Part shown: in pieces, positions 12,563 through 31,676 of the stretch
Position numbering within the stretch: position 1 is the stretch's first letter
How the letters are laid out: every line of letters starts with the position of its first letter
IMG/VR virus record: IMGVR_UViG_3300037067_009230
Span: 12,156-76,155 of that record
DNA: 64,000 nucleotides
Origin: a virus
Taxonomy: Duplodnaviria; Caudoviricetes
Strand: one strand, 5' to 3'
The notes under the pieces: generated by a model
Seen by the model: the letters and a program-made list of their open reading frames with translations, nothing else
What the model was told of the DNA's origin: nothing
Databases searched by the model: none
Made by a program: the position numbers and the translations under genes

Positions 12563-12883
12563 ATGTGTGACGGAAATTTAGCAATGGCAGAAACTTTGAA
12601 TAACGCAGAACCAACCCAATTGGGTATAGGTGCAGTTAGCAGTAGTGCTTTTGTTAATAGAGAAGGTATTGTTTTGAAAGTTGGTATGAAAGTAAAAGGA
12701 TTTATTACATATCAACGCTCATATATGAGAACTGGTGACAAAGACATCACTGGTACTATTGTAAGCAAACATGGGAGATTGTATGTAAATAGCGATTCTG
12801 AACCCGAAAAGAACTATCCACTTTCAAAATTTGCTCACAATTGGCTAACTCAAAATAAAATTGCATGGTTGGATGTTCTTTAG
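12563..12883 (+). CDS. Cassette-borne hypothetical protein (cassette C1)
   Basis: N-terminus QLGIGAVSS is encoded by an attC-like right arm. Body is bounded by GTTAG(12635) and CTAAC(12896). Confidence 0.65.
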   Translation: MCDGNLAMAETLNNAEPTQLGIGAVSSSAFVNREGIVLKVGMKVKGFITYQRSYMRTGDKDITGTIVSKHGRLYVNSDSEPEKNYPLSKFAHNWLTQNKIAWLDVL

Positions 12884-12959
12884 CATTGCACCTAACGGAC
12901 AGCGGTAAGAGTAGGCCGCTTTGTAGACTGCTCAAATTTAGTAACAGCCTTTCTGCGGT

Positions 12960-13274
12960 ATGCTTTATGACCGCTTGTTAGGCACAGTACATTTTATTAT
13001 GATTTCAATTAAAAAAGCAGATTGGACAAAGAAAAGAGAATACTCAAAAGAAATGAAACTTGATGGATTTATTTCTTCCGTAGAATTAAGCGGAATGCAC
13101 TTTACTCAGATTGATTCACTCGGAATTGATTCTCGAAAATTAGATAATCCAAAAATACTTAAACAGAAATTTGAAGCAGATAATAATTTGCGTTGTATCT
13201 GTTTGGATTACGGAGGCAGAACTAAAAAATATTGGTACAAAGTTGGCGACTTGCGGAAGTTGTATTGTGCCTAA
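12960..13274 (+). CDS. Cassette-borne hypothetical protein (cassette C2; alternative start 12999)
   Basis: Stop TAA lies inside the terminal CTAAC box. Confidence 0.65.
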   Translation: MLYDRLLGTVHFIMISIKKADWTKKREYSKEMKLDGFISSVELSGMHFTQIDSLGIDSRKLDNPKILKQKFEADNNLRCICLDYGGRTKKYWYKVGDLRKLYCA

Positions 13275-13328
13275 CTAGCTAGTAAACATACTAAAGGTAT
13301 GTTTACTATACAAAAATCAGTAAATAAA
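13273..13328 (+). repeat. 56-bp attI-like array-terminal element, copy 1
   Basis: AACTAGCTAGTAAACATAC-TAAAG-GTATGTTTACTATACAAAAATCAGTAAATAAA; three copies in the window. Confidence 0.9.
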
Positions 13329-13363
13329 TACACTTTTAAGGCTAACAAAATAATCAGGTAATT

Positions 13364-13645
13364 ATGGAAAATAAAACATTATTAGTAATCATTCCGGGAC
13401 GAAATACCAAAAAGAGTATATTCAGTTTACTTGTAGCCGAGACGGGTGAGTTTTTAACATCTCGTTTCTGTACCAATTCTGATTTTGCTTATGGTGATTT
13501 ATACTTAACCAGGGAGGATAAAGTAAAAGAATATAAAGAACGCTTTGGAGAAGTTGAGGTGAAGTACATAGATGAGACAGATATCTCAGTAGCCGAATTA
13601 AAATCCCGGAACAAGAAGTGGTTTGAATCATTACCGAAAAAATGA
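13364..13645 (+). CDS. Hypothetical protein, tandem paralogue A
   Basis: KTLLVI.PGR...LLVAETGE.L.S..C.N..FA..DLY...KE.KERFGE shared with the next ORF. Confidence 0.7.
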   Translation: MENKTLLVIIPGRNTKKSIFSLLVAETGEFLTSRFCTNSDFAYGDLYLTREDKVKEYKERFGEVEVKYIDETDISVAELKSRNKKWFESLPKK

Positions 13646-13649
13646 AATT

Positions 13650-13856
13650 ATGAAAACACTATTAGTTATTGATCCAGGTAGAGATGTAATGTATGATTGC
13701 GTATTTCATTTATTGGTTGCTGAGACTGGGGAACATTTAGCATCTCATTTATGTAGTAATTATGGGTTTGCTAAATCAGACTTATATGAAGGGAGGCCAG
13801 AACGTATAAAAGAATTTAAGGAGAGATTTGGTGAAATAGAGATAATAATTCATTGA
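13650..13856 (+). CDS. Hypothetical protein, tandem paralogue B (shorter)
   Basis: Homologous to 13364..13645; start chosen by alignment. Confidence 0.65.
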   Translation: MKTLLVIDPGRDVMYDCVFHLLVAETGEHLASHLCSNYGFAKSDLYEGRPERIKEFKERFGEIEIIIH

Positions 13857-14179
13857 TGAAACCAATATCTCACCAAATGAATTATTATCTCGAAACAAAA
13901 AATGGTATGAATCTTTATCAAAAACAGAATAATATGAGCATATATACAATTGAAAGACAATTAAGTGACAAAGCGGATAAATGGGAACTGCATAATGTCC
14001 AAAATGAGAACAGGGAATTAAAAAACCAAATCAATGAACTTGAAAGAAAAATTGGACAACTTGAAAGTGTAAATAGTAACAGATATTATGCACTTGAACA
14101 GCTTTTTAATATACTTGCGGAACATCCAGAATTCTCTGATGTATCAGATCAACTTTATACGTTAAGGAGTAATCTTTAA
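13853..14179 (+). CDS. Coiled-coil hypothetical protein
   Basis: ORF track; heptad pattern. Confidence 0.5.
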   Translation: MMKPISHQMNYYLETKNGMNLYQKQNNMSIYTIERQLSDKADKWELHNVQNENRELKNQINELERKIGQLESVNSNRYYALEQLFNILAEHPEFSDVSDQLYTLRSNL

Positions 14180-14191
14180 TTATTATAAGTT

Positions 14192-14356
14192 ATGACAAGA
14201 GAATTGGGTTATTACTGGGTACAATGGGACATCAAAGATAATTGGCTAATATTCTGGTTTAATGGTGGATATTGGCAATGCTGTGCAATGGGTAGAATTG
14301 AACTTAATGACAAAAATATATTGTCAATTGATGAACATAGACTTTACCATAAGTAA
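14192..14356 (+). CDS. Small Trp-rich hypothetical protein (54 aa, not in ORF track)
   Basis: Translated by hand: MTRELGYYWVQW...IDEHRLYHK. Confidence 0.55.
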   Translation: MTRELGYYWVQWDIKDNWLIFWFNGGYWQCCAMGRIELNDKNILSIDEHRLYHK

Positions 14357-14368
14357 AAAATTGATTAT

Positions 14369-14581
14369 ATGATAACTATTAAAGTAAAAGGGTGTGTTAA
14401 GGAAACAACGAATGGTTATATAAAACCAGAATGTCCATGTGTGTGGCCCAATAAGAATGGAGAATGGCATTGTCAGTTTGGTTGTTTTCTATCATTTACC
14501 ATATTACATACAAAAGCTCCATCTGATTGTCCATTAAGAGAGGGAGGTGTTGAGATTATCTTAAGCGAAAGCGGGGGGTGA
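14369..14581 (+). CDS. Small Cys-rich hypothetical protein
   Basis: ECPC...WHCQFGC...PSDCPL. Confidence 0.55.
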   Translation: MITIKVKGCVKETTNGYIKPECPCVWPNKNGEWHCQFGCFLSFTILHTKAPSDCPLREGGVEIILSESGG

Positions 14582-14605
14582 AAAATAAAATCTATAATTA
14601 TTTAA

Positions 14606-14637
14606 AAAGGCTCTCATATTAGGGAGCCTTTCTTTTT
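14606..14637 (+). terminator. Intrinsic terminator
   Basis: AAAGGCTCTC-ATATTA-GGGAGCCTTT-CTTTTT at the end of the operon. Confidence 0.8.
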
Positions 14638-15415
14638 ATATCTTATATGGAAGATAGTAGAATCGTTTCCTGACCCTTCTGGGCCCTTTTAACGAGTTCA
14701 CATGCATACAGAGTATACCAGCCGCCTCTTTCTTTGTCCGGACCACCAGAGTCTCCTTAGGGGCTTCTAAGTCAATAACAATGTGTCGTAGGTGTTTCAT
14801 TCAAACATAGCTTTATCTATTCTGGCAAACAGATCCTTCTCCTTAAGGGTATTCTTAAGACACTGCCCAAGGAGCCTACAGCTTACACAAGAGCCAAATT
14901 CCTTACTATCATCCTTATTTGCTTTACACAGGGCACAGTAGATACTCCTGCAGGCTACGTGGATAAATTTTCTCATGATCTTTTTTATTGGTTTATGCAA
15001 AGATAAGTAAAATTGTGTATTCTCTAAGTGGGTTTTACACATTTTCATCAAAATTATTGGGAAATATGGGTATATTTTATGTTATATAACATGTTTTTAT
15101 AGGATATGTGCACATTTTCCACTTTTCTATGCGTGATGTACAGGTTATCGGGGTGGTCCCCTACCCCCTTTGTGTGTTACTGTGGAGGTTTTACACAATT
15201 TCAGGGTGAAATAGGGTCCCATATTCGGATAAAAAGGCATTTTTCTACTTAAAAAGAGGTGAGATCGGGGAATTTCCACTTTTCCATGGGTGGGGGACTA
15301 TCCATCCGATTCACCCCCTGCCCTGCTCTGAGGGAAAACTCGATCCTAAAACCGCTCTCGAATACGACCGGGTCCCCTTTGTCTAATAGATTGACATACA
15401 GCAACATACGTTTCT

Positions 15416-15443
15416 ATTTTACATAATGTTAATTATCGGACAC
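15416..15443 (-). other. XerCD dif-like recombination site
   Basis: Minus strand GTGTCCGATAA-TTAACA-TTATGTAAAAT is 11-6-11; the XerD arm is one mismatch from TTATGTTAAAT. Confidence 0.75.
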
Positions 15444-15673
15444 AAACATATTAAAACGCTTATTTTCAGGCTGTTATATGAATATTTGGGCAATATGACA
15501 GGAAACTGAGAAAATCATAGAGACATTAATAAAAGCGTAGGGGGTGCATAATCCTAATTCTATTTTTACAACTAGACAAATAATATGTTATAAAATATGT
15601 TTTACCTGCATTATATGTTATATAACATATTTTATAAATTGTAACTGACTGATACACAGTATAAAGTAAATAC

Positions 15674-15762
15674 CTGTAAATAATAGAGGATATAAAAGTC
15701 TTTTATTATTTATTACTTATACTATATAATAAAGGATCACTGTAAATAATAGAGGATATAAA
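15674..15762 (+). repeat. 23-bp direct repeat CTGTAAATAATAGAGGATATAAA x2
   Basis: Identical copies at 15674-15696 and 15740-15762. Confidence 0.85.
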
Positions 15763-15984
15763 GATCCGAATATATTTTATTATGGCAATATAAAAATAAT
15801 TGAAAATTATTACTCTCAATATCAGTAACTTATAAATAAAATGAAAATATTTTGAAAAATACCTATTAAAATATATTAATAAAGTAAAACTAAACGTCTC
15901 AAACGTTCACCCTGTGTGGTTTTGCACACGCAGAATTTTTATATTTTATTCCTTAAAAACTATGTAACTCACTGATAATCAGTC

Positions 15985-16033
15985 TTGACATTACATATCT
16001 TAATATTATATCTTTGCTACATGTTCTTTGACA
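15985..16033 (+). promoter_or_regulatory. Early promoter TTG-N21-TATCTTTG plus boxA-like TGTTCTTTGACA
   Basis: Bacteroidota consensus; boxA-like sequence is two mismatches from E. coli rrn boxA TGCTCTTTAACA. Confidence 0.65.
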
Positions 16034-16050
16034 TATGAAATAAAATATCA

Positions 16051-16091
16051 TCCCTGGCAGTTAAGCTGTGGCATTCGATCGCAACCAGGGA
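16051..16091 (+). ncRNA. Armless tRNA-like hairpin, copy 1 (divergent)
   Basis: TCCCTGG/CCAGGGA stem enclosing a short hairpin and a TTCGAT loop. Confidence 0.35.
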
Positions 16092-16123
16092 ACTAATTAT
16101 TAACCACTTTAATACTTAAAAAT

Positions 16124-16351
16124 ATGAATAAAAAATTATTTGAGTCTATTATAGACAAACATAATGCAGGCATGTTTAATATCTCACGCTTAGAGTATTC
16201 GAGTGAACACGAAGAAGCAAAACAAATGCTTAATAAATTAAATAAAAAAAATTTAATTCACTTTGTTAATTATCTTACATGGTATAATGGTCAGTTATAT
16301 GTAGGGATAAATGGTAAAGGCGAATTTGATTTATTTGATCTTCCAAAATAA
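16124..16351 (+). CDS. Early hypothetical protein
   Basis: First ORF after the early promoter. Confidence 0.65.
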   Translation: MNKKLFESIIDKHNAGMFNISRLEYSSEHEEAKQMLNKLNKKNLIHFVNYLTWYNGQLYVGINGKGEFDLFDLPK

Positions 16352-16378
16352 TTATTAACCACTTTAATACTTACTAAC

Positions 16379-16675
16379 ATGAAAACAATAGATTTTAAAC
16401 GTATTAACAAGGACGTTAACGGAAATCCTCGTTATGTATGTCATTATTCAGAGTTTATAACTGATAAGGATAGGGAAAATTTTCCTTACAAGCAACAAAT
16501 ATTTAAAGTAAATGGTTACTTAGATAATCTTTATAAAATTGCTCTAAATAGGGCTAAAACCCTTGGGGGTCGCAAATTCCACAATAAACAGTATGGCGGT
16601 GGGATTGTATTTCAATCTTATAATATCATATATTTGCAAAATAGTATCTTTGAATTAATGAAAAAATATGAATAA
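16379..16675 (+). CDS. Early hypothetical protein
   Basis: FKRINKDVNGNPRY...GGGIVFQSYN. Confidence 0.7.
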   Translation: MKTIDFKRINKDVNGNPRYVCHYSEFITDKDRENFPYKQQIFKVNGYLDNLYKIALNRAKTLGGRKFHNKQYGGGIVFQSYNIIYLQNSIFELMKKYE

Positions 16676-16704
16676 TGAAAACACAAACCAAAAAATCAAT
16701 CATT

Positions 16705-16977
16705 ATGAAAACTTTAGAAAATTTAATCAACGAAAAAACCTACCAAGTCATTGACCAAGTTTCAAATCGCTTCAATTTTTGCGAATTAGTCGACATTGAC
16801 AAACAACTTATTGAATATGCTGAAAATGGCACAGAATACGAATTAACTGAACAATTACCAGAAGATGTAAAAAGAGCAGTTGATACAATGATTACAAACG
16901 ATGTAAAAATTGAAGATTTTACAGGTGTTGTAAGATTTGAAAATGAAGATACTACTTATTATTTATTGACTTGGTAA
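16705..16977 (+). CDS. Hypothetical protein (start set by the repeated 31-bp leader)
   Basis: Leader identical to that of 19051..19149. Confidence 0.6.
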   Translation: MKTLENLINEKTYQVIDQVSNRFNFCELVDIDKQLIEYAENGTEYELTEQLPEDVKRAVDTMITNDVKIEDFTGVVRFENEDTTYYLLTW

Positions 16978-16978
16978 T

Positions 16979-17164
16979 ATGCTAAAACTTGAAGAAATAA
17001 GGGCGTTTTTAACCGAACGCCCTCTTCTTACTCAACGAGGTTTGAGTTTAGAAAGTGGCATATCTGACAGCCTTTTAGGCAAGATTTTAAGAGGTCAAAG
17101 AAATATGACCGAAGATGTTTCCGACAAGTTAGAACCGATACTCCGCAAGTACGGGTTTAAATAG
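16979..17164 (+). CDS. XRE/Cro-like HTH protein
   Basis: LTQRGLSLESGISDSLLGKILRGQRNMT. Confidence 0.8.
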   Translation: MLKLEEIRAFLTERPLLTQRGLSLESGISDSLLGKILRGQRNMTEDVSDKLEPILRKYGFK

Positions 17165-17246
17165 CAGTTAACGTTAAATGTTTGTGCAGTTGGGGATTAT
17201 AAACCACTGCACTGTCAAAATAGTACTAACTTAATAAATACAGATT

Positions 17247-17549
17247 ATGAGCGAATTAGCACAAGACCCCCAATTGCATAAACATATTGTTGTGCGTAGT
17301 TATTTATCATTCTTTGCAGAAAAACACAAGTGCCACATTGATAAAATAATGGTTGGAATGGTTGGGGGTGATTTGCATGTATGGAAATACGACGAAGGCG
17401 CAGCAAATATTTTTACACAACTCGAAATCATATCCAATTTTGAGACTGATGATAGAAAATGGATTTGTCAATTATGTGGCGAATTAGTTAACGGTAGAAA
17501 TGTAACATTTGAAGAATATCACGAAGGTTGTGGTGGCCTCTGTGTATAA
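17247..17549 (+). CDS. Cassette-borne protein with C-terminal Zn-ribbon-like motif
   Basis: ATG lies in the hairpin loop; CQLCG...HEGCGGLC. Confidence 0.65.
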   Translation: MSELAQDPQLHKHIVVRSYLSFFAEKHKCHIDKIMVGMVGGDLHVWKYDEGAANIFTQLEIISNFETDDRKWICQLCGELVNGRNVTFEEYHEGCGGLCV

Positions 17550-17557
17550 TTACGCAC

Positions 17558-17613
17558 AACTAGCTAGTAAACCTACTAAAAGTATGTTTACTATACAAAA
17601 ATCAGTAAATAAA
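17558..17613 (+). repeat. 56-bp attI-like array-terminal element, copy 2
   Basis: 54/56 identical to copy 1. Confidence 0.9.
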
Positions 17614-17628
17614 CAAAAAATTAAAGTC

Positions 17629-18182
17629 ATGAAAACAAAATTAACAGAAGCACAGAAGCAAGCTAATAAAGAGGCTAAACGAGCTAAAATAAAAGCTGAA
17701 AAAAGATTAAAAGAATAGAAGCTGAAAAAACCCAACCAGATGTAAAGGATATTACAATTACTATTGAATGGAAAAAGTCTCGGACATGGGGCGCAAATCC
17801 ACACGCAACGGCAGCCGTAAATTTTAAAGATAAAACAGCAGGCGAATTTAAAACAGGTTTTTACCGTTCTCCTGAAGGTAATTATACTTGTTCTGGGTGT
17901 GGGTACGATAAAGAAAGTACGGTTATTGCTCAGATATTTAATGACTTTCTGAAATACAAACTTTGGAGGCTTAGCCCTGAAAAATTAAAAGGTGGAAATG
18001 GATCCTTAGATAAAGGTCCGGCTCCATATGGAATTCATTTATATTCTGAAAATGAACCTTATTATGATGGAGGTATTGGAACAAGTTGCTATTATAATAT
18101 CTCTGAATACATTGGTGGTAAATTTGAATGCATTGCAAGTGGTAAAACGTTTGATGTTTATAAATATACTGATAACGAATAA
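17629..18182 (+). pseudogene. Frameshifted phage early gene (or sequencing error)
   Basis: MKTKLTEAQ...RLKE* continues in the -1 frame for 156 codons (ITIEWKKSRTWGANP...SGCGYDKES...YDGGIGTSC). Confidence 0.65.
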
Positions 18183-18262
18183 AGTTTTTGCCTGTTACAA
18201 GTCAGGGATTAATACAGAGTATCCCCCAGATAAGGGGGTAATGTAACCAAAAATTAAAAGAT

Positions 18263-18568
18263 ATGAAAACAGATAATCAAGTTACGGATGTAATTTTCCG
18301 TAAGTTTAAGGATGGAGATATAATAGCCTTATTTCCATATGAAATTGATAATTATCATGGTGACTGTCTAAGTTATATGCATATTGGACAACATGGCGGA
18401 GCTAATTACTGGCATTGCTTAACAATAACTAAGCCAGCAATGATAAATGAATATGAGCCATTGATGCGGGAACTTATTTCTATTGGATATGAACTAAGAA
18501 TAAGACAAAAAATAAATTACAAAGTGTTTTTATCTGCTATGAAAATATTTAGAGATAAATATAATTAA
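18263..18568 (+). CDS. Early hypothetical protein
   Basis: VIFRKFKDGDIIALFP...SYMHIGQHG. Confidence 0.7.
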   Translation: MKTDNQVTDVIFRKFKDGDIIALFPYEIDNYHGDCLSYMHIGQHGGANYWHCLTITKPAMINEYEPLMRELISIGYELRIRQKINYKVFLSAMKIFRDKYN

Positions 18569-18588
18569 CTAACCTAATACTTAACATT

Positions 18589-18972
18589 ATGAACTACAAT
18601 GATCTAATAAACAAAATTTACCAAAAGACCATCGAAAATCAGTTTTATGTTGTAAATATTGAAGGTAAGGAACCTGTTACGGGCTATACTGTAAGCACAA
18701 TTGGCAATGAATTAAGGATTAAATTAAGTGATTTTACACCCGAAAAAATTGATAAATATATTAAAACAAAGCTACTTAGGTATCCTTATGCCTATTTTGG
18801 TACATGGATCTTAGATGATACGGTATATATTGATGTTTTATATTATACAGAATGCAAAGCTATTGCCATCGAAGCTGGAAAAATGTTTGGCCAAGTATGT
18901 ATCTGGGATATCTCTAGTAAACAAGAAATATATTGGCTATCTGAGGCATTATTTGAATATAGTTTAAATTAA
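18589..18972 (+). CDS. Hypothetical protein of a GTW...DV...A...GK..GQ..IWD family
   Basis: Motif pattern; a similar domain occurs in the 2093-aa protein. Confidence 0.6.
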   Translation: MNYNDLINKIYQKTIENQFYVVNIEGKEPVTGYTVSTIGNELRIKLSDFTPEKIDKYIKTKLLRYPYAYFGTWILDDTVYIDVLYYTECKAIAIEAGKMFGQVCIWDISSKQEIYWLSEALFEYSLN

Positions 18973-19015
18973 CCGGACTATGGAGCATGAGGCAGTCCGA
19001 TTCTGCCTCCGGTTC
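18971..19015 (+). ncRNA. Armless tRNA-like hairpin, copy 2
   Basis: AACCGGA/TCCGGTT acceptor-like stem; GGCAG-TCCGATT-CTGCC T-arm. Confidence 0.5.
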
Positions 19016-19050
19016 AAATGTTTTTAGTATTAACCAAAAAATCAATCATT

Positions 19051-19149
19051 ATGAAAACTTTACTTATTCTTTTAATCGTATTTGTTGCTATATGCCTTCT
19101 AGGTATATTATACAACGGTTACACATGCTTCAAACAACTGTTTAAATAA
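19051..19149 (+). CDS. 32-aa membrane peptide (not in ORF track)
   Basis: MKTLLILLIVFVAICLLGILYNGYTCFKQLFK. Confidence 0.5.
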   Translation: MKTLLILLIVFVAICLLGILYNGYTCFKQLFK

Positions 19150-19213
19150 CAGAGTGTCAAAGAACTACAGTATTTAAATATACTTAAAATTTCAATATGT
19201 TTAATTAAAAAAG

Positions 19214-19726
19214 TTGAAAAAAATTATGAAAAAGTACAAATTGACTAATCAGGAATTGCAGACTTACAAGGACTGCCAATGGGAAATCGGCGTATCAAAA
19301 ACAACATCCGGAGAAGGTAATTTATGTTCCTCCGGATGGTTACATTATTATGATAATCCTTTATTAGCCATCTTATTAAATCCTATTCATGCAGATATTA
19401 AAAATCCACGACTTTTTGAATGTAAGGCTGAAGGTAAACATCTTAGTGATAGAGGATTAAAAGGGGGTTGTACAAAAATGACTTTAATTAAAGAAATTAC
19501 AGTCCCTGAAATTTCCAAAGAACAAAAAATTGCTTTTGGGATTCTTTGTTCTTTGGAAGTATATAAAGAAACAAAATATAAGAAGTGGGCTGAAAATTGG
19601 CTAAATAATACCGACAGGTCAGCAGATGCTGCTTATGCTTATGCTTATGCTGCTTATGCTGCTTATGCTTATGCTGCTGATGTTATAGATTTAATTAAAA
19701 TAGCTGAAAAAGCTATGAAATATTAA
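19214..19726 (+). CDS. Hypothetical protein with Ala/Tyr tandem repeat
   Basis: LCSSGWLHYY; GCT/TAT repeat encodes AAYAYAYAAYAAYAYAA. Confidence 0.7.
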   Translation: MKKIMKKYKLTNQELQTYKDCQWEIGVSKTTSGEGNLCSSGWLHYYDNPLLAILLNPIHADIKNPRLFECKAEGKHLSDRGLKGGCTKMTLIKEITVPEISKEQKIAFGILCSLEVYKETKYKKWAENWLNNTDRSADAAYAYAYAAYAAYAYAADVIDLIKIAEKAMKY

Positions 19727-19733
19727 AGTAAAT

Positions 19734-19778
19734 AACCCTGTATGGTACTCGATCAGGTTCGACTCCTGATCCGGGTTC
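19734..19778 (+). ncRNA. Armless tRNA-like hairpin, copy 3
   Basis: AACCC/GGGTT stem; ATCAGG-TTCGACT-CCTGAT T-arm. Aligns with copy 2 (TAACC...TATGG...GGTTCAA). Confidence 0.5.
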
Positions 19779-19779
19779 A

Positions 19780-20046
19780 ATGAGTAATATTACTCAGTTA
19801 TTTAAATTTATTGATATGAAAATAGAACATTTTGAATCCAAAGAATCTGGCAAAGTTTCTTTAGTATGCCAAGATCCATTATTTAATCAATGGAATAATT
19901 TAAAACAATTAATGTCAAAGGCTGTAAGTATTCGTGAGTGGAATATTTTACGGGGGCTGGCTAAACTTACCTATCCAATTGAATTAATAAATAGACTGGA
20001 TGCTTCTGGCTTTATCGTTTCCTTAAATCTTAAAAATGAGAAATAA
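19780..20046 (+). CDS. Hypothetical protein
   Basis: ORF track; coupled to the next gene. Confidence 0.55.
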   Translation: MSNITQLFKFIDMKIEHFESKESGKVSLVCQDPLFNQWNNLKQLMSKAVSIREWNILRGLAKLTYPIELINRLDASGFIVSLNLKNEK

Positions 20047-20588
20047 TGGAAAAGGAAACAGTAACAATTGAGATTCTAAATCGAGCTATTGAAGTAGAGC
20101 CAGTAACTGCTATACATCCAAAGGGTGTAAAAATATTCATGGAGAGAATCATAGGTACCACAAAGTATCTTTCAAACAACAGAAAGATCTTATATGATGT
20201 ATCCTTCATTAGTTTGTATAATTACAATAATAAAATTATTGATGGGTGTTTTGCGATTGATGGGTTTGTCTATAAAATTGATGCATGGGCTTCCATAGAT
20301 TTTCCGGATAGATTCTTACAGATACTGGATAAAAATGTACCAGAATGTAGGGGTATATGTTTTTATCTTGATAATAAACTCTATGCTGAGAATGTACCAT
20401 TTCTCAAATGTGATGATATGCAAGACCATCTTCTTACCCAAAGAAATGATGGTCTGATGTGGTTCAACAAGTTAAAAATTGTGGACAAATCAGGAAACAA
20501 GACAGTATTTTACCCTTCCATCAAAGCAAAGAAACTTCATGATCAATTTAAAACGCAAAAAGAAGGATATAGTACCACAGAAGCCTGA
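20046..20588 (+). CDS. Hypothetical protein
   Basis: 180-aa ORF. Confidence 0.65.
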   Translation: MEKETVTIEILNRAIEVEPVTAIHPKGVKIFMERIIGTTKYLSNNRKILYDVSFISLYNYNNKIIDGCFAIDGFVYKIDAWASIDFPDRFLQILDKNVPECRGICFYLDNKLYAENVPFLKCDDMQDHLLTQRNDGLMWFNKLKIVDKSGNKTVFYPSIKAKKLHDQFKTQKEGYSTTEA

Positions 20589-20769
20589 TATTAAAGTTGC
20601 TTATTATGGGTTCCATTGCCCTATTTGTGGAGTTTACGTACCAGCCGGGACTAATTATTTAAACTTTAATGGGTTTAAAATGTGTATTAAAGAGTCTAAT
20701 TAATTAGCCTCTTATCGAATAAACAGTAAATTGTATGTAAAAACATCTATATTAGTAGATAATTATTAA

Positions 20770-20809: not shown

Positions 20810-20817
20810 TTTAAATT

Positions 20818-23656: not shown

Positions 23657-23745
23657 TTGCTATAATTGTTAATATCAATCTACATAATAAAGTTAGAGTA
23701 CAGAAAATTATTATAACTACAATACCTATTGTAATTGAGAAAAAA

Positions 23746-24186: not shown

Positions 24187-24872
24187 AATAACTTCTGTTT
24201 TATTACTTGTAAATGGGCAGCTACAAAAAGATCTGCTAGAACATTAATAGTGATTGGCTGCCTCATTAATTCAGCCTGTTCTTTATTTGTATAGAATCCA
24301 GTCTCTGTAAGAATTGCAGGCATTCTAGTCTTAGTAAGAACATAAAATTTTGCCTCCTTATCTTTATCTCCATCTATCATATCAGCTCGCATTTGCCACC
24401 CCATATTAGAAAGATGATTATAAAATATATCAGCTATCGGATCTGATTTTGTCTTTCCGGGAGATGTAAATACCTCAATACCGGATGCAGCGTGTGTTTT
24501 AAACGCATTAGCATGAATTGAATGATAGTAGCATTTAAATTTATGATCTGATAAATATTGCATGGTATTATTAGCCCTTTCAACTCTTAAAGGCACTGTA
24601 ATGTCATCATCCTCTGATACTATAATAGAATATGGAAGGTCTAGATCATTTAATTTAGATGCATATGTCCATGCTAATGCCCTATTAAATACCCCCTCAT
24701 AAAAAGTAAACTCAGGATATACATACATTTTTGATGGTGCAGTAGTATATACACAGTCTAATATCCCACCGTGTCCCGGATCTATAAGAGGTACAATTTT
24801 TGAATCTCTGCCATAATGATATGATGGTATCTGATTCTTTATATCACTGATAATTTTAAGAAGTGCTTTCAT
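24183..24872 (-). CDS. N-acetylmuramoyl-L-alanine amidase (Amidase_3), putative endolysin
   Basis: IDPGHGG, SIHANA, ILTETGFYTN. Confidence 0.9.
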   Translation of the reverse strand: MKALLKIISDIKNQIPSYHYGRDSKIVPLIDPGHGGILDCVYTTAPSKMYVYPEFTFYEGVFNRALAWTYASKLNDLDLPYSIIVSEDDDITVPLRVERANNTMQYLSDHKFKCYYHSIHANAFKTHAASGIEVFTSPGKTKSDPIADIFYNHLSNMGWQMRADMIDGDKDKEAKFYVLTKTRMPAILTETGFYTNKEQAELMRQPITINVLADLFVAAHLQVIKQKLL

Positions 24873-25417
24873 TTATAAATTTGTTTGAATAATTCATAAC
24901 TGATATCCCTAAAGAATATGTCAGATTTAAATCCAATAATATCCAGATTCCACCCCATAAACTGTGCTGCTGTGTATCTCATCCATTCAATATGTTCGAT
25001 TAAAACCATAGGAAAAAAGATATAATATAAATCTTTTGGCATGCCGTTCTCTCGAACCATCAAAAATGGTTTTTTCTTAGCAGCAACAGCATCATTTTTA
25101 CACTGGATCATAAACCTGTATATGACAGAGTTAGTCCTAATGAACGGTGCGGTCTTTTTTAATCCAAGGTTCTTATAGAACTTAGTCTCCACACTATAAG
25201 GGAAATCAAATTCTCTGTCTACATTAATAACATCTCCGCAAATATCACCACGTTCTTTCCATCTTAATCCCCCGGACATAGGTACTCTAACAAATTCATG
25301 CCCGGTCCATTCCTGTAATAAATGAGTAACATTTAACTCATTTCTATTCCCTTTGAGTTTACTATTAATCCTGTTATTTGTAAGTTTAATGTCAAATAAA
25401 TCTTCGGCTACGTTCAT
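24869..25417 (-). CDS. Holliday-junction resolvase-like PD-(D/E)XK nuclease
   Basis: KGNRNE...FVRVPMSGG...GDV...SVETKF. Confidence 0.75.
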   Translation of the reverse strand: MNVAEDLFDIKLTNNRINSKLKGNRNELNVTHLLQEWTGHEFVRVPMSGGLRWKERGDICGDVINVDREFDFPYSVETKFYKNLGLKKTAPFIRTNSVIYRFMIQCKNDAVAAKKKPFLMVRENGMPKDLYYIFFPMVLIEHIEWMRYTAAQFMGWNLDIIGFKSDIFFRDISYELFKQIYK

Positions 25418-25884
25418 AATACCTTATTTATGAAATAATGTTTCCAAAGTCTTTCCTGCTCTGTCTTATCACCACTGGTCTTAATCCAGTATAGTAAAGA
25501 TAGGAAAAAATTATTCTTCCAACCCCCATTTTTATCAAACCATTTTTTAAACTCCTTTGTCTCATTCTCTTCCTTTACTTTTTTCTTACTATTCTTTTCC
25601 ATTTCAAGTATTTTACTAACTTGGTCAGAAAAAGCAGCACCCCGAAGAGTAAATGGTCTATTTTTTGATTTGTTAAACTCTTTACATTCGGCTATCCACA
25701 TATTACGATACTTAGTAAATAGTGCATCGGCTTCTTCACCTTCAGTATCCTTTAAATCGGACCGGTAAGTAAAAAATAAATTTATAAGTGTGGTAAGAGT
25801 CTCCTGTTTCTTTGCTCTTAATCTTCTAACAAATCTGGGATCTTTCTCCTTAGTTTCGTTTTGAACAACCTTTTTCTTTTCCAT
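25414..25884 (-). CDS. Hypothetical protein
   Basis: 156-aa ORF coupled to both neighbours. Confidence 0.65.
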   Translation of the reverse strand: MEKKKVVQNETKEKDPRFVRRLRAKKQETLTTLINLFFTYRSDLKDTEGEEADALFTKYRNMWIAECKEFNKSKNRPFTLRGAAFSDQVSKILEMEKNSKKKVKEENETKEFKKWFDKNGGWKNNFFLSLLYWIKTSGDKTEQERLWKHYFINKVL

Positions 25885-27830
25885 TAGTTTAAAATTAAAT
25901 TGTTATTTTCTTTAGTAAAATTTATTGTATTAGCATATAAGTTATCCAGAGTACTGGAATGAGATATTACATAAACACTCTTTCCTTCATCGGCTTTCAT
26001 CCTAATTAAATCAAATACAGCATTTTCACCATCCTCATCCAAACCATCAAAAACTTCATCCATAATTAATAGGTTGATATCTGTATTAATTGAAATGAGA
26101 TCGTACATCGCAAAAATTAAAACGATATCTAATCTTTGCTTCTCACCCCCTGAAAATTCTTTATAGTCTTTATTTAATTTATCCCCTAAAGAGCATATTG
26201 TCGTAAAAGGCTTGCTAGATTTCGTTAAATCAATTGCAAATTCAATTGATATTCCAAGCCGTTCTCCATATTTGCGTGTATTCTCGTTAAGCTGGGCCAG
26301 CATAGCGTTAAAAATAAATGCTTTTATTCCACTGGCACCAAATCCCTTCTCAGACCACCATTTTATTATTTTAATCTCTTCTTGTAAATCCGTGATATTA
26401 CTATTAAGTGATTCAGATTTAATCTTCATTAAAGTAATTGCTTTCCCCTGTGATGCTATATTAAAATCTGGAGCCTTTTCATTCTGTAAAGATTTTAACC
26501 TAATCTTTTCATTTTCTAATAGGACTATCTCAAATAGGGTATTTTCAATGTTATTAAGTTCTTGATATCTGGCAGCAACTACATTGTATCTATCATTTGT
26601 GGTAGTAATATCGTTTTTAACTCTTTTAATCCCTTCTGTGACATCATCTAAAGCCTGTGTTAATTGAAGTAATTTATTATTTAACTCAAGTATCTGAGTA
26701 TTTAAATCTTCAATCTCAGCCTCAGCCTCTTTGTTAGCAGTCGAATAAATCTTTTCAATATTTGCATGATTAGTTTGATTAATAGCCTGATGACATACAG
26801 GGCATAATCCTTTTACAATAGATTCTTTAACAATACCTTTATTTTCCTCAATCTCTTTCTTAATTTGATTTATTCTAGCAGTAAACTGGTTAATTCTATA
26901 ATTATTATTATCAATCTCAGACTGAATACGTTTCTGGTCATTATCAATCTCTACCAAATCCAATCGATACTTATTCTTGGTACTAGTGAGTTCATTATAT
27001 TCCTGTTCAATCTTATCATGTTCTTCTTTGTCATAATCAAGAGGAGGAACAACTACTTTTAACTCATTATTATAATTAGTAATAAGAGTTTCAAAACCCT
27101 TAATATTTGATTCACAGTCTGAAATCTTATTAGCCTGATTCTGACCCCACTCCTCACAAAGACGTTTATCCCGAACAAGGGTAGCCTCTGCCATAGTAAT
27201 CTGAGAATTAAGGGTATCAGCCTCAGATATGATCTTACTAAGATTTTGATTCTTCTCAGTAAGATCCAGTTCGGCTTTATGCTTACAGATATTAACCCAC
27301 TCTACATCAAATAATTGCTCAAACAAGGCTCTCTTATCTTTATTATCCTGAGTGATTAATCGGGCCATCCTTTGACCAAACATTACAGAGTTCATAAATG
27401 TCTTAGGATCAGTGCCAAGGAGTTTATTAATTCTTTCCTGAGTTTCATCTTTATTAATTCCTGGGAAAAGTTGTTCATTATTTTTCCAGAGCATGAGTGA
27501 ATCATTACCCTTTAAACCGTTAGTATCTCCCTTATAATCCAAATGACGAGCAATGGAGTAATCTTCTCCATCTACTTCAAAATACGTTATTACTCTGGTT
27601 CCTTTCCAATTTGAGGGTCTTATCTCTTCCCATGAAGCGACTTTATCCTGATTAGTTTCTTTTAAGTTTGTACCAAATAAACACCATACCACAGATTCAA
27701 ATAATGTTGTTTTTTTAGTACCATTAACACCTTTAATAAGATTTAATCCGGGACGGTCAAGATCAAATATTAATTGATTGACGATACCACGGAAACCATC
27801 TATTATTGCTTGTTGAAATTTAATTTTCAT
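25884..27830 (-). CDS. sbcC: SbcC/Rad50 (gp46-like) ATPase
   Basis: Walker A variant GVNGTKKT, coiled coil, Zn-hook CPVC, FSGGE signature, MDEVFDGLD, ISH. Confidence 0.9.
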   Translation of the reverse strand: MKIKFQQAIIDGFRGIVNQLIFDLDRPGLNLIKGVNGTKKTTLFESVVWCLFGTNLKETNQDKVASWEEIRPSNWKGTRVITYFEVDGEDYSIARHLDYKGDTNGLKGNDSLMLWKNNEQLFPGINKDETQERINKLLGTDPKTFMNSVMFGQRMARLITQDNKDKRALFEQLFDVEWVNICKHKAELDLTEKNQNLSKIISEADTLNSQITMAEATLVRDKRLCEEWGQNQANKISDCESNIKGFETLITNYNNELKVVVPPLDYDKEEHDKIEQEYNELTSTKNKYRLDLVEIDNDQKRIQSEIDNNNYRINQFTARINQIKKEIEENKGIVKESIVKGLCPVCHQAINQTNHANIEKIYSTANKEAEAEIEDLNTQILELNNKLLQLTQALDDVTEGIKRVKNDITTTNDRYNVVAARYQELNNIENTLFEIVLLENEKIRLKSLQNEKAPDFNIASQGKAITLMKIKSESLNSNITDLQEEIKIIKWWSEKGFGASGIKAFIFNAMLAQLNENTRKYGERLGISIEFAIDLTKSSKPFTTICSLGDKLNKDYKEFSGGEKQRLDIVLIFAMYDLISINTDINLLIMDEVFDGLDEDGENAVFDLIRMKADEGKSVYVISHSSTLDNLYANTINFTKENNNLILN

Positions 27831-27856
27831 TTTATTAATAATTAATAAAAAGTGTG

Positions 27857-27912
27857 TTTATTTACTGATTTTTGTATAGTAAACATACTAAAGGTGTGTT
27901 TACTAGCTAGTT
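27857..27912 (-). repeat. 56-bp attI-like array-terminal element, copy 3
   Basis: Matches copy 1 except for the hairpin loop, which is reverse-complemented (CTTTA vs TAAAG), and one substitution. Confidence 0.9.
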
Positions 27913-28267
27913 AGCAGCCATTTTTAAGGAAGTCTGGTAGCTTCTCATAACATTCACTTAAAAATAATGGTCTGTCTTTGTAATGCTTTCGTAACTTCAA
28001 GAGCATATTTCTTTGATATTCCACCTGTTTAACAAAGTCATTGTATTCGGTTTCTGTAAGTTCATTTTGTCCTTCTTTTCTAAAGAATTTATTGTAGAAA
28101 TAAACAAGTGAATCTTTGCACTTTTGAAGTTCCTCTTGGTCAGCAGATAATAAACGGCTGCTAACCGCATCTATACCCAATTGGGTAGTTTCTGAGGTAT
28201 TCAAATTTTTGTGTTCCATTGTTACTTTATTTTTTAAGTTGATAATTTTGTGTTTCAAATTGCCCAA
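27911..28267 (-). CDS. Cassette D8 protein (probable start 28219 in hairpin loop)
   Basis: QLGIDAVSS N-terminus comes from the hairpin arm; stop inside CTAAC. Confidence 0.65.
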   Translation of the reverse strand: MGNLKHKIINLKNKVTMEHKNLNTSETTQLGIDAVSSRLLSADQEELQKCKDSLVYFYNKFFRKEGQNELTETEYNDFVKQVEYQRNMLLKLRKHYKDRPLFLSECYEKLPDFLKNGC

Positions 28268-28319
28268 CTGGGCATAGCTGCAACACGTTAGGTTTAATAA
28301 TTACCCCTACGCACCGGGA

Positions 28320-28490
28320 CTAATTACTATCAGGATCGTATGTTTTATATTTCCATCCTAACCATGCCATTCGTCCAAATTTCTTATCCAGTTCTAAATC
28401 AATGTGGGCCATTGACCAATTCTTACTGATTTCAAATTCCTCTGATGACCCATTTTCTAATTCTACAATTATTGTTCTCATTTGTCGCAT
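28320..28490 (-). CDS. Cassette D7 protein (56 aa, not in ORF track)
   Basis: Translated by hand: MRQMRTIIVELENGSSEEF...WLGWKYKTYDPDSN. Confidence 0.55.
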   Translation of the reverse strand: MRQMRTIIVELENGSSEEFEISKNWSMAHIDLELDKKFGRMAWLGWKYKTYDPDSN

Positions 28491-28577
28491 AATTAATTTC
28501 GTTATCTGATCTCTTCTGTAATTACTGAAATCTAACTACGTGTAAAATTCATTGAAACGAAATTTTACACCTGTCCG

Positions 28578-28874
28578 TTAGCAAACATGCCGATAGAGGT
28601 ACCCACTTTTATGAGCGCGTTCATCAACTTGTTGCATTAGTTCTTTTGCTGATTCACTTCCGTAAGGTCTGCGATATTTGACTTCTTCTGTGCCGTCTGG
28701 CCACTTTTGCACAATTTCAGTAGTTACAAAGGCACGATTTGCTAACAATGTATTTACGCCATTGGCGGTTACATTCTCGCTGGATAAGTTATCGGTTTTC
28801 ATATATTCGTTTTTACGTTTAAAATTTGTACTAATTAATCGCCAACAGGCGCAAATACTCACCGTTAGCGGCAA
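28578..28874 (-). CDS. Cassette D6 protein (probable start 28802)
   Basis: Start in hairpin loop; stop inside CTAAC. Confidence 0.6.
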   Translation of the reverse strand: MPLTVSICACWRLISTNFKRKNEYMKTDNLSSENVTANGVNTLLANRAFVTTEIVQKWPDGTEEVKYRRPYGSESAKELMQQVDERAHKSGYLYRHVC

Positions 28875-29167
28875 TTAAGCGATTTTATGTACTCATTAGC
28901 AACATAACTTGCTTTGCATTCATCAAACTCATTAAGTGTTGATTTGTACCATATCAAAAAATCGCTTAACAGTTCGCTTTGCCCGCTAACATCAGGTATA
29001 GTTAATTGCCTTTGCTCCGATTCATACCCGTTCGCTAAGTGCTCAGAATATTCGGTCATTAACCTAATAACAGTATCATAACTAAATGCTGTTCCTTCTT
29101 CTTGTCCGTCTGGGTAACGAACTTTCTGTGTGTACCCTTTTTCAAATAAAAATTGATGTGCTTTCAT
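28865..29167 (-). CDS. Cassette D5 protein; N-terminal ~59 aa encoded within a giant attC-like hairpin
   Basis: QLTIPDVS marks the GTT junction; stop inside CTAAC. Confidence 0.65.
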   Translation of the reverse strand: MKAHQFLFEKGYTQKVRYPDGQEEGTAFSYDTVIRLMTEYSEHLANGYESEQRQLTIPDVSGQSELLSDFLIWYKSTLNEFDECKASYVANEYIKSLNCR

Positions 29168-29275
29168 AATTCGCTCACTATTTAAGTTATTAAAGTTTAT
29201 TACTCTTATTAAGGTTAGTAGTAATTTGACAGAGGCAACTAACCATACCTGTGTTCGTTAGGCACAATAAAAAGA

Positions 29276-29512
29276 TTACGGTGTATCTCTGAAATAAGCA
29301 GTTGTGATATGATATTTTGCTTGTTCATCTTTTGGTAGTTTATGAATTTCGTCCATAATCCTATTATACATCTCCACCTTTTTAATCTTATACTGTTTAA
29401 GTTCTTTATACCATTTTATGGCGAATGGTAGTTTAGTTATCCACCCAATTAAAATGCCTATTGCTAAAATAATACATGTACTCATATTATTAAGATTTAC
29501 TGTGCCTAACAC
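29276..29512 (-). CDS. Cassette D4 membrane-anchored protein (probable start 29485)
   Basis: Hydrophobic N-terminus CIILAIGILIGW. Confidence 0.6.
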   Translation of the reverse strand: MLGTVNLNNMSTCIILAIGILIGWITKLPFAIKWYKELKQYKIKKVEMYNRIMDEIHKLPKDEQAKYHITTAYFRDTP

Positions 29513-29638
29513 ATGCTATAAAAAATAGCGGTTTTAGTAGTTTGCACAAGGTTTATACTTCTATTTAATTTCACTGTATTTTGATAAATTTGTTCTTCTA
29601 TTTCCGCTACTTTTCATAGCATCAACGTTAGGGTGCAT

Positions 29639-29977
29639 TTAAAAATCCTTACACCAACTATCCAACTGAAAGGATAGACTGTCATATACTATTGTTTTAT
29701 TTGGTAACTTTCGCCAATTCCAATAACCTCGTGGATATTCTTCTGTTGCAATAAATTTAATTTGCTTTTTGATTAATCCAAACAAAATAGGTTGTTCGCA
29801 AGTCAAAATGATGTTACCCTTTTCGTTTGTTTCTTTTTTAATTGCTTTCATAAAAATTGAATAAAAACGCACCCTAACAATGTATATAGCAAATTGGGGG
29901 TGTCGTTCCAACTTGTATATTTGTGCTGTTAATTTACTTCTGTGTGGCTCGATAGGGTAGCACATTTTAATCCCCAA
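29639..29977 (-). CDS. Cassette D3 protein (alternative start 29851)
   Basis: Body bounded by gttagggtgc / gcaccctaac. Confidence 0.6.
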   Translation of the reverse strand: MGIKMCYPIEPHRSKLTAQIYKLERHPQFAIYIVRVRFYSIFMKAIKKETNEKGNIILTCEQPILFGLIKKQIKFIATEEYPRGYWNWRKLPNKTIVYDSLSFQLDSWCKDF

Positions 29978-30021
29978 CTTGCCATATACTTAACGTTAGT
30001 TGCAAGGCTAAGTCCATGCAT

Positions 30022-30852
30022 TTAATCAACATTTGTGGGTAAATCCGTAAAAGAAAAAAGCCCACGCTCTTTTGCTTTTTCAAAGCAATTAGGGTTAATG
30101 TCACAACCAATAAAACTTCGGTTTAAGTCTTTACAAACTTCTGCTGTTGTAAAACTACCTGAATAAAAGTCCGCAACTAAATCACCTTCATTGCTACTTG
30201 CTTTAATAATTCGTTCAATTAATGATTTTGGTTTTTGGGTATCATACCCAAGTCTTTCAGAGTTAGTCGGCCCTAAATTATTCAATTCCCAAACATCATC
30301 AATAGGTGTTGAATCTTGTATTTTATAAACAACATCCCCATTTTCATCCCTTTTCATTACCTTTTTGCCATCTTTCACATCTACCTTATTTTTCTTTCTT
30401 GGTGTTTCTAACGGTAATCTTAATTCATTAAATATTATTTTGTCGGTTTTACCATAAAATATAAGTATATCGTGGTTTTTAGCAAACGCCTTTTGTTTTA
30501 TACTCCATTTATTGTAACTCCAAATAACCTCATTCACAAAATTATCATACCCAAATATATCATCCATAATACACCGCATCCAATGGTTTATTTTTGTGTC
30601 CATTTGTAGGTAAATGCTTCCTGTTGGTTTTAATATCCTGTGCATTTCTTTTATTCGTGGTATGTAGTGGCTTTCAATTTCGCTTCGTATTGGCTTTATA
30701 TCTTGATAGTCTGCAAATCTTCTACCAGTACCATAGAGTATATCACAATAAATTAAATCAATCGTGTTGTCTTTAATTTCTGCCATCAATTCTAAATTGT
30801 CGCAAATTCTAAGGTCTAAAAACCCCTCCCCATTTTTTTCTTTTACTCTCAT
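30022..30852 (-). CDS. N4/N6 DNA methyltransferase (beta class), cassette D2
   Basis: Motif IV variant YCDILYGTG, TQKPKSLIERII, motif I DFYSGSFTT, FIGCDIN. Confidence 0.85.
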   Translation of the reverse strand: MRVKEKNGEGFLDLRICDNLELMAEIKDNTIDLIYCDILYGTGRRFADYQDIKPIRSEIESHYIPRIKEMHRILKPTGSIYLQMDTKINHWMRCIMDDIFGYDNFVNEVIWSYNKWSIKQKAFAKNHDILIFYGKTDKIIFNELRLPLETPRKKNKVDVKDGKKVMKRDENGDVVYKIQDSTPIDDVWELNNLGPTNSERLGYDTQKPKSLIERIIKASSNEGDLVADFYSGSFTTAEVCKDLNRSFIGCDINPNCFEKAKERGLFSFTDLPTNVD

Positions 30853-31022
30853 TCGTTCATTTAATTAAGTTTCTACTAATTTTACCGCCCAGCATATAAC
30901 AATGTATATAATTTATAGGCAGTTATGTTAATAATTCAATCTTTATTTCTCGTTTAAAGTATGTAGGTAACTCAAAATTCGTAGCTCGAAATGCCTACAA
31001 ATCATATACAAACCGTTAGCAC

Positions 31023-31262
31023 CTATTTTAAAATGAATGACTGACAATCATCACATATAAAACTATGAGCATAAACAGATTTTAATTCGCACCATGAGCA
31101 ATGACCATATGTGGCACCCGTATAGTATTTACAGTTCCCGTATTTATAAAAAACAGGTGCTAACACAGGCTCAACTGCAATAGCTGGAGAAGTATGTTGC
31201 GTAGGTCTTACTCTTTTTGCCATGTTCGTTGTATTTTGATAATTAAGTATTTCAAATTCCAC
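31023..31262 (-). CDS. Cassette D1 small Cys-rich protein (probable start 31223)
   Basis: CKYY...HCSWC...ICDDC; start in hairpin loop. Confidence 0.6.
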   Translation of the reverse strand: MEFEILNYQNTTNMAKRVRPTQHTSPAIAVEPVLAPVFYKYGNCKYYTGATYGHCSWCELKSVYAHSFICDDCQSFILK

Positions 31263-31283
31263 TACATGCGGTTAGCATCAACG

Positions 31284-31676
31284 TTAGACACCTATTTCAA
31301 AAGAATAATCACTCCCATTGATAGTTTCTTTTTCATAATAATTACATAGTTCACCAAGGGAATAGAAAACAGGTATATTATGTTTCTTTGCAAGTGCTAC
31401 CTCATCATCTGCGCCAACGCTCTCACCAGATAAACGCAGTACACAATCACAAACTAGTAGCCATATATTATCTATAGTAATCCAATCATTGTCGGGTCTT
31501 GGCTGTACTACATTTTGAAAATGATTTAAAAGTGGTACAAAAGGCACAAAATTTAAATTCATGAGAATATGTGCAGTATCTATCTGCCTATTTACATTTG
31601 AGATTTTATTACCCAGTGTATAAGGACTTGCGATATAAACCTTAATTGAATCTTTAGTCATATTTGGGAAAGTCAT
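31284..31676 (-). CDS. DUF1937/DUF4406-like (nucleoside 2-deoxyribosyltransferase-like) protein
   Basis: KVYIASPY...WLLVCDCVLRLSGESVGADDEV...IPVF. Confidence 0.75.
   Translation of the reverse strand: MTFPNMTKDSIKVYIASPYTLGNKISNVNRQIDTAHILMNLNFVPFVPLLNHFQNVVQPRPDNDWITIDNIWLLVCDCVLRLSGESVGADDEVALAKKHNIPVFYSLGELCNYYEKETINGSDYSFEIGV

Follow-up and report, generated by a model that had tools for sequence, protein, structure and literature searches.

The 64,000-nucleotide stretch analysed here, hereafter the window, is a 64-kb part (positions 12,156 to 76,155) of the 76-kb tailed-phage virus record IMGVR_UViG_3300037067_009230 (Duplodnaviria; Caudoviricetes), rated 92% complete. Many of its small genes are separated by elements running, on the gene-sense strand, from CTAAC to GTTAG, which fold into hairpins with G·T wobble pairs at fixed positions. 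This raises the question of what such wobbles do. It is held in integron biology that only unpaired features (extrahelical bases, central spacer, terminal loop) distinguish the strands of attC sites, and that the IntI-specific domain is needed to read them. The preliminary description of the window had taken the wobbles for structural determinants recognized by a recombinase of single-stranded hairpins. As argued below, it is well supported that the hairpins form one family of ~125-nt attC-like sites (CTAAC…GTTAG) bounding integron-type cassettes, and the wobbles probably serve as strand-selection marks on a single-stranded DNA recombination site.

The long sites follow a common plan, in which CTAAC is followed by a spacer made of G and four bases, a 17-bp stem, a loop of ~65 nt, the return arm, a three-base spacer and GTTAG. 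The build is that of an attC site, with an R box (CTAAC/GTTAG), an unpaired spacer of unequal length (in most sites, 5 nt on the AAC arm and 3 nt on the other arm) and an L stem. Six sites of the window, 124 to 131 nt in length, are of this long type (C17, D1, D2, D3, D5 and D8). In five of them, the 5′ arm reads T(A/T)T-G-NNNN-G-T(A/T)G and is opposite C(A/T)A-T-NNNN-T-A(A/T)A on the 3′ arm. These are C17 (17168..17293, + strand; G at 17184 and 17189, T at 17279 and 17274) and, on the minus strand, D1 (30896..31019; G at 31003 and 30998, T at 30910 and 30915), D2 (29874..29999; G at 29983 and 29978, T at 29888 and 29893), D3 (29506..29631; G at 29615 and 29610, T at 29520 and 29525) and D8 (28161..28291; G at 28273 and 28268, T at 28175 and 28180). 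The sixth, D5 (28742..28868, minus strand; G at 28852 and 28846, T at 28756 and 28761), has both wobbles with a 1-nt bulge (T) between them on the 5′ arm. The two G·T pairs five bases apart that had been reported in the inner arms are thus present in all six sites. The four Watson-Crick pairs that separate them vary from site to site.

This conservation extends to much larger sets of sites. A pattern scan of viral contigs, with the flanks fixed and the six central bases left free, gave 55 unique family members, in which G·T occupies the two positions in 53 and 54 cases and the bases between take many complementary forms. A covariance model, R1, was then built from 61 sites and recovered three further sets, namely 140 distinct sites in viral contigs (inner G·U in 138, outer G·U in 116), 149 in a first set of bacterial loci (141 and 133) and 100 in a second one (100 and 89). 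Altogether, these viral contigs and Bacteroidota genomes provide 389 distinct sites, of which 379 have G·T at the inner wobble and 338 at the outer one, counts that must be read bearing in mind that model-fitted alignments lean towards R1 and that the sequences are mutually related. Within the three R1 sets, 95-96% of the cells are paired and compensatory (two-sided) changes are seen at 15-16 of the 17 stem pairs; none of 500 shuffles attains such values, and registers collapse when slid. In most other stem columns, G·U pairs number 0-7 per set. Three columns stand apart with 7-29, including the column beside the outer wobble (at most 29/149) and the first stem pair (at most 14/149). The G is invariably on the AAC-bearing arm of the L stem, and short sites of 50-90 nt bear the same two wobbles. 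The idea that the wobble positions are conserved therefore withstands the larger alignment, where they appear non-random and fixed amid covarying flanking pairs (389 sites).

Because a C-to-T change in a hairpin G·C pair yields G·T, one may ask whether the wobbles are neutral scars of cytosine deamination in exposed single strands, or of the origin of the hairpins, with no present function. Damage would, however, scatter. Instead, two columns are ~87-97% G·T when most others are at 0-5%, with a maximum of ~19% (29/149, beside the outer wobble), and this position specificity holds across phyla-wide sets whose neighbouring pairs changed many times. An origin as scars is thus extremely improbable and is rejected. 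Another view is that the G's and T's are conserved as arm-specific contact bases of the recombinase (TATG...GT(T/A)GG; CC(A/T)AT...TATA), their facing each other being incidental. The neighbours of the wobbles are conserved too (T-A/T-T ahead of the first G, T-(T/A)-G behind the second), and sites in which the outer pair has been replaced, mostly by A·T or G·C, are not lost. Nevertheless, G opposite T recurs in short sites with other flanks, as well as at base 11 of the R stem, in the different, cassette-specific contexts described below. Recurrence in such varied contexts argues for the pair itself, or for the strand asymmetry that it creates, so that an incidental facing of contact bases is distinctly unlikely.

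The hairpins had been presented in the preliminary description as otherwise unrelated. This part of the description was wrong. The sites are homologous, with conserved flanks and loop motifs, and show up to 95% identity to sites in unrelated contigs. Thus, D2 (109.4 bits with R1) is 95% identical to sites of loci L005 and L024, and D3 (105.8 bits) is 93% identical to sites of L013 and L035. The R1 scores of C17, D5, D1 and D8 are 97.3, 82.3, 79.8 and 79.6 bits, respectively. In bacterial genomes, the pattern scan detected at least 120 loci, and Bacteroidota loci with arrays number at least 114. Among the matches listed, most belong to Flavobacteriaceae, Cytophagales, Bacteroidales and Saprospiraceae, with a few Calditrichia, Chlorobiota and others. 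Many of the bacterial loci have five to ten sites within 8 kb, on a single strand, and arrays are also found in many viral contigs.

What the sites bound is indicated by the ends of the intervening genes. The bases following the GTT of one site are reverse-complementary to those preceding the AAC of the next, so that the two ends of a cassette can pair, over 14-15 bases in the window. Pairing of cassette ends outward from GTT/AAC is the signature of integron cassettes, since the crossover splits the hairpin site and each cassette carries both halves of the R stem. For the cassettes of the window, the 3′ ends (...AAC) were reverse-complemented and set against the corresponding 5′ ends (GTTRRRYNNN-G-NNNN). 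In agreement with the earlier claim for base 11, a G faces a T directly at this base in 8 out of 10 cassettes. They are C0 to C1 (12645/12886) and C1 to anchor (12987/13265) in array 1, C17 to anchor (17299/17550) in array 2 and, in array 3, D0 to D1 (31154/31025), D1 to D2 (30890/30005), D2 to D3 (29868/29637), D3 to D4 (29500/29267) and D8 to anchor (28155/27920). In the other two, D5 to D7 and D7 to D8, the same G/T is found after a 1-nt bulge, that is, once one extra pyrimidine at base 10 is removed. In other loci, bases 4-10 match perfectly for 53 of 155 pairs of consecutive sites, vs 0.6% of non-cognate random pairings. Base 11 is G/T in 50 of these 53 perfectly matched cassettes (27/29 viral, 23/24 bacterial), and the pairing runs on through bases 12-14 to end by base 15-16. 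The base-11 wobble can pair only in the excised circular cassette, and its conservation implies selection on this circular form. Miniature transposons (MITEs) were also considered and ruled out, as the complementarity spans each gene rather than each element and as the arms covary.

The window contains three small arrays, each of which closes with AAC and a 53-nt anchor containing a hairpin. The three anchors (13276-13328, + strand; 17561-17613, + strand; 27909-27857, minus strand) are near-identical and comprise, directly after AAC, a TAGTAAACATAC hairpin and then TATACAAAAATCAGTAAATAAA. The end of array 1 (13264..13328, + strand) is made of the cassette 3′ repeat ATTGTGCCTAAC (AAC 13273-13275) followed by this conserved, attI-like anchor hairpin. 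At the end of array 2 (17549..17613, + strand), ATTACGCACAAC (AAC 17558-17560) precedes the anchor copy, and at the end of array 3 (27857..27921, minus strand), ATGGCTGCTAAC (AAC 27912-27910) precedes a copy located directly upstream of an SbcC-like gene. No copy of the 53-nt anchor was found in ~190 other loci. Arrays elsewhere end in AAC and a TAGT-palindrome-ACTA element next to a recombinase, and the anchor of the window has the same form (TAGTAAACATAC...GTATGTTTACTA).

Which enzyme goes with these arrays was addressed in the loci that carry one. A search for integron integrases in five array-bearing genomes returned a single true integrase, in a Calditrichia genome; in the other genomes, it returned split sub-threshold matches to a smaller recombinase. 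The Calditrichia integrase was set aside as array enzyme, having no R1 site within 10 kb. The smaller protein is a tyrosine recombinase with homologues in 22 array-bearing loci (18 bacterial, 4 viral). In 22 out of 22, it is located at the array end towards which the cassette genes point, i.e., gene-downstream. The array-linked recombinases, among them those encoded at L057:202-1008 and L194:9856-11043, have intact catalytic motifs (R..K..HxxR..H..Y), and the alignment shows them to be devoid of the ~40-residue IntI insertion. Their top NCBIfam model is the XerA-like NF040815 (174-225 bits), and their scores with the integron integrase model TIGR02249 (151-203 bits) are below the 265 cut-off. 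Judged from its sequence, the linked enzyme is a simple tyrosine recombinase of the Xer type, with no extra arm-binding or IntI domain. With anchor and enzyme both downstream of the genes, the cassettes have a gene orientation opposite to that of classical integrons. The recombinase gene itself is co-oriented with the cassette genes in the four viral contigs (L057, L017, L036, L023) and convergent with them in 16 of the 18 bacterial loci. Taken together, the attC-like sites, the complementarity of cassette ends, the distribution of the arrays and the recombinase at a fixed end give good support to the setting inferred in the preliminary description.

Comparison with classical integron attC sites, as recombined by IntI1 and VchIntIA (Nivina et al., 2016; PMC5027507), shows a common scaffold. 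An R box of the RYYYAAC/GTTRRRY type, an unpaired central spacer, an L box and a variable loop are found in both. In the present family, CTAAC...GTTAG occurs at all long sites and the R helix is conserved. In both, structure is kept while sequence varies, complementary cassette ends fit a crossover at AAC/GTT, one strand folds better by ~2 kcal/mol and arrays have an anchor (attI-like) at one end. Unlike classical attC, however, the present family has no extrahelical bases near L″ on the arm opposite AAC and has three fixed G·T instead. Bulges are rare, and the L stem runs without interruption (6 bp, G·T, 4 bp, G·T, 5-6 bp). The R stem reaches 14-15 bp, and the central spacer is 5 nt vs 3 nt, compared with 5-6 nt per arm in classical attC (PMC5027507). 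The linked recombinase lacks the IntI-specific insertion. Genes of classical integrons run away from attI/intI and are expressed from Pc, whereas those of the present family face the anchor/recombinase end, the window arrays ending with the anchor. Finally, unlike with classical attC, the genes often start in the hairpin loop, so that the folding strand is the coding strand. It is established for classical attC that recognition is structure-based, the strands being told apart by extrahelical bases lodging in the integrase (PMC5027507). According to the numbering used in that study, the wobble T's, carried by the arm opposite AAC, would lie about where classical sites have their extrahelical bases.

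The three special positions, L-stem 7 and 12 and base 11 of the extended R stem, are G·T on the gene-sense strand and A·C mismatches on the complement. Therefore, solely the gene-sense strand folds into an unbroken hairpin. With DNA folding parameters, this strand is the more stable of the two in 125 of 140 sites, the mean difference being 2.3 kcal/mol; for the bottom strand of classical attC, the published advantage is 2.12 kcal/mol (PMC5027507). Given the polarity that the anchor sets, AAC lies on the 5′ arm of the gene-sense strand, which makes this strand the counterpart of the bottom strand recombined in classical attC (PMC5027507). It can be proposed that the wobble asymmetry tells the Xer-like tyrosine recombinase which strand to bind and cut. 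Cleavage would occur at AA|C of the 5′ CTAAC box of the gene-sense strand, and the marking of one strand would fix the orientation of the cassette. The wobbles would thereby take over the strand-marking job of the extrahelical bases and of the IntI-specific domain, both absent here. They may act through stability, through wobble-pair shape in the outer portion of each binding box, or through the two together. The view that the wobbles are recognition determinants of a recombinase, already put forward in the preliminary description, fits the invariance of their position and orientation, the lack of extrahelical bases and the lack of an IntI domain.

It might alternatively be considered that the hairpins act mainly as RNA. 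The G·U pairs would then act as recognition or tuning elements in mRNA structures between cistrons, which would serve processing, the stabilization of 3′ ends or the translational control of the gene that starts in the loop, and cassette mobility would be a separate matter. All wobbles are G·U on the transcribed strand, which RNA folding favours by 4.7 kcal/mol on average, but their G/T orientation never flips, which stability alone would not demand. Several genes start inside the loop, as in C17 (at 17247), D8 and D0, but many sites have no start codon there. A twister-P3 ribozyme occupies an intergenic slot in the same block of small genes, and a second one is present in another array-bearing contig; for the sites themselves, no Rfam family gave a match (gathering thresholds and E ≤ 1), solely twister-P3 and chance matches being returned. 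Covariation fits RNA and DNA hairpins equally. The base-11 wobble is harder to reconcile with RNA, as its partners stand a whole gene apart in the array and become sensible only in an excised circular cassette, and the constant association with array ends and a tyrosine recombinase is an argument for DNA. A principal role as RNA is therefore rather unlikely, although some RNA-level role, as allowed for in the preliminary description, may exist. We infer that DNA is the folded molecule, and the identity of the exchanged strand and the reading of the wobbles by the enzyme are inferred likewise.

Clusters of attC sites lacking an integrase (CALINs) have been described in virulent phages, including Polaribacter phage P12002L (Qi et al., 2023; PMC9892861). 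With its rows of attC-type sites detected by R1 and no integrase in the 76-kb record, the phage studied here carries a CALIN. P12002L resembles it in having phage-borne cassettes, including a related N6/N4 DNA methylase, and no integrase of its own. Its short sites have the same grammar, one of them reading GTATAT-G-GTGC-G-TTT; R1 found no long site in P12002L. The published study treats the P12002L sites as ordinary attC, tested with IntI1, and does not mention the wobble positions, the 125-nt family, the Xer-like recombinase or the reversed polarity (PMC9892861). P12002L_attC2 is the site that did recombine with IntI1 (PMC9892861). This assay was considered as support for the strand assignment and then dropped, since the primer table shows that the site is an array-end repeat read in the opposite direction (PMC9892861).

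Two further systems offer partial parallels. The Vibrio cholerae repeats (VCRs) of sedentary chromosomal integrons are, like the sites of the present family, ~125 nt long, highly similar and attached to unrelated genes; they differ by their extrahelical bases and a true IntI (established knowledge and PMC5027507). The integration of CTX phage as a single-stranded DNA hairpin by XerC/XerD, cited as the only other case of a folded single strand (PMC5027507), involves a Xer-type enzyme without IntI domain acting on such a strand, as proposed here. By its description, to which the likeness is limited, CTX differs in having a single phage attachment site and a chromosomal dif target, with neither cassettes nor arrays.

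It should, however, be noted that several points weigh against a strand-marking function in recombination. Firstly, the outer wobble is replaced by a Watson-Crick pair in ~9% of the sites and hence is not strictly required. Secondly, the folded strand is also the mRNA strand, where G·U pairs in RNA would give the same pattern. Thirdly, when site pairs at least 80% identical are compared, the flanks are unrelated on both sides in 233 of 242 pairs, and the crossover end is consequently deduced mainly from the layout of the arrays. A flank shared on one side alone was seen downstream in four of the 242 pairs and upstream in none, which mildly supports the idea that the site travels with the gene behind it. 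Fourthly, no tyrosine recombinase is found in the whole 76-kb record, and in a phage devoid of such a recombinase the enzyme would have to come from the host or from a co-resident element. Fifthly, with IntI1, no verified recombinants were obtained from P12002L_attC1 (PMC9892861), a short site that is the only tested family member identified and for which the gene-sense strand is the listed bottom strand. As counter-evidence this result is weak, since IntI1 is heterologous to the site, and it fits a different cognate enzyme. Lastly, the site family is defined by sequence and computed folding, and it is at this level that the wobbles fit a role as recognition determinants.

With these reservations, the site family suggests a second solution to the problem of strand choice, in which positions that are paired, though not in Watson-Crick fashion, allow one strand to fold but not the other, and which goes with a simpler, Xer-like enzyme. 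If this is true, the definition of integron-like systems widens, and lytic phages draw on the same cassette pool. It would also explain why standard tools find few integrons in Bacteroidota despite common cassette arrays; IntegronFinder 2.0 reported almost no complete integrons in Bacteroidetes (PMC9024848). Within the integron-like subgroup of tyrosine recombinases, not all members conserve the IntI insertion, as noted in a published survey (PMC8138268). No account of attC-type sites with fixed G·T positions, of the present family or of its reversed polarity emerged from a literature search. Structure-based recognition of attC and phage attC clusters are known and, as far as could be found, what is new is a variant with fixed G·T, a Xer-like enzyme and reversed polarity. 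A broader proposal, to which we would give slightly less than an even chance, is that Bacteroidota and lytic phages share a large, unpublished integron-like branch, having a Xer-like enzyme without IntI domain, genes facing the recombinase and strand choice by three G·T, whose cassettes, anti-restriction methylases included, pass between host chromosomes and phages. The wobble positions offer a small, clean set of mutations for the study of strand selection.

Besides the long sites, the arrays of the window contain several shorter or decayed ones. Array 1 opens with an orphan 3′ arm (12609..12642, + strand) that ends in GTTAG (GTT at 12635), keeps both wobble T's and is near-identical to the 3′ arm of D8. 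It is followed by C1 (12892..12981, + strand), a CTAAC...GTTAG hairpin of 90 nt that belongs to another stem subfamily, lacks the standard wobble grammar and is 84% identical to L001:1252-1363. D0 (31160..31287, minus strand; 46.6 bits with R1), the first site of array 3, is a degenerate long site in which the inner wobble is kept and the outer one is a C/A mismatch. In the same array, D4 (29239..29261, minus strand) consists of a CTAACG box and a short decayed hairpin; it was delineated by eye, its limits are uncertain and R1 does not match it. The cassette 3′ repeat ahead of D4 does match the 5′ end of its own cassette. D7 (28532..28581, minus strand; 20.7 bits with R1, E 0.12) is a short site of 50 nt, built as CTAAC-GGACA-10 bp stem-loop-GTA-GTTAG, with no wobble.

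Start codons lie within the hairpin loops of C17 (17247, where the next gene starts), D8 (an ATG at ~28217) and D0 (~31222), and reading continues through the 3′ arm. Proteins begun in these loops have related N-termini (..PQLHKHIVV.., ..TQLGIDAVSS..), and several sites preserve the same frame. A coding constraint on the 3′ arm was ruled out, most sites being non-coding there.

The sole cassette with a recognizable product (30022-30852, minus strand) encodes an N6/N4 DNA methylase (PF01555, 1e-45), related to those of methylase cassettes of Polaribacter phage P12002L and of several viral contigs. The ends of this cassette are the least complementary of its array. In a DNA-similarity search of the array, methylase genes of Flavobacterium, Cellulophaga and Polaribacter phages were the sole nucleotide-level relatives among cultured phages. 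A search for relatives via the Mre11-like protein found nothing, and no cultured-phage relative of the DNA polymerase exceeds ~30% identity. The remainder of the window encodes a portal protein, a large terminase, tail fibres, DnaB-like and other helicases, a family A DNA polymerase, SbcC/Rad50-like and Mre11-like proteins and a tRNA-Met.

The twister-P3 self-cleaving ribozyme of the window is located at 18184-18254 (+ strand; 51.9 bits vs a gathering score of 39.9), between genes of the + strand block of small genes, and the second one at L012:12174-12244 (minus strand; 56.4 bits), in another viral contig that also bears a cassette array. Upstream of array 1, a protein with a caspase domain (Peptidase_C14) is encoded at 10870-11664 (+ strand) and, just before this array, 11893-12080 (+ strand) resembles by eye a C-terminal remnant of a ThyX-type thymidylate synthase devoid of a start codon. 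Finally, an AT-rich region of ~1 kb (15050-16120), with no long open reading frames and with repeated ATATGTTATATAACATRTTTT palindromes and other repeats, separates oppositely oriented gene blocks and may be a regulatory or origin region.

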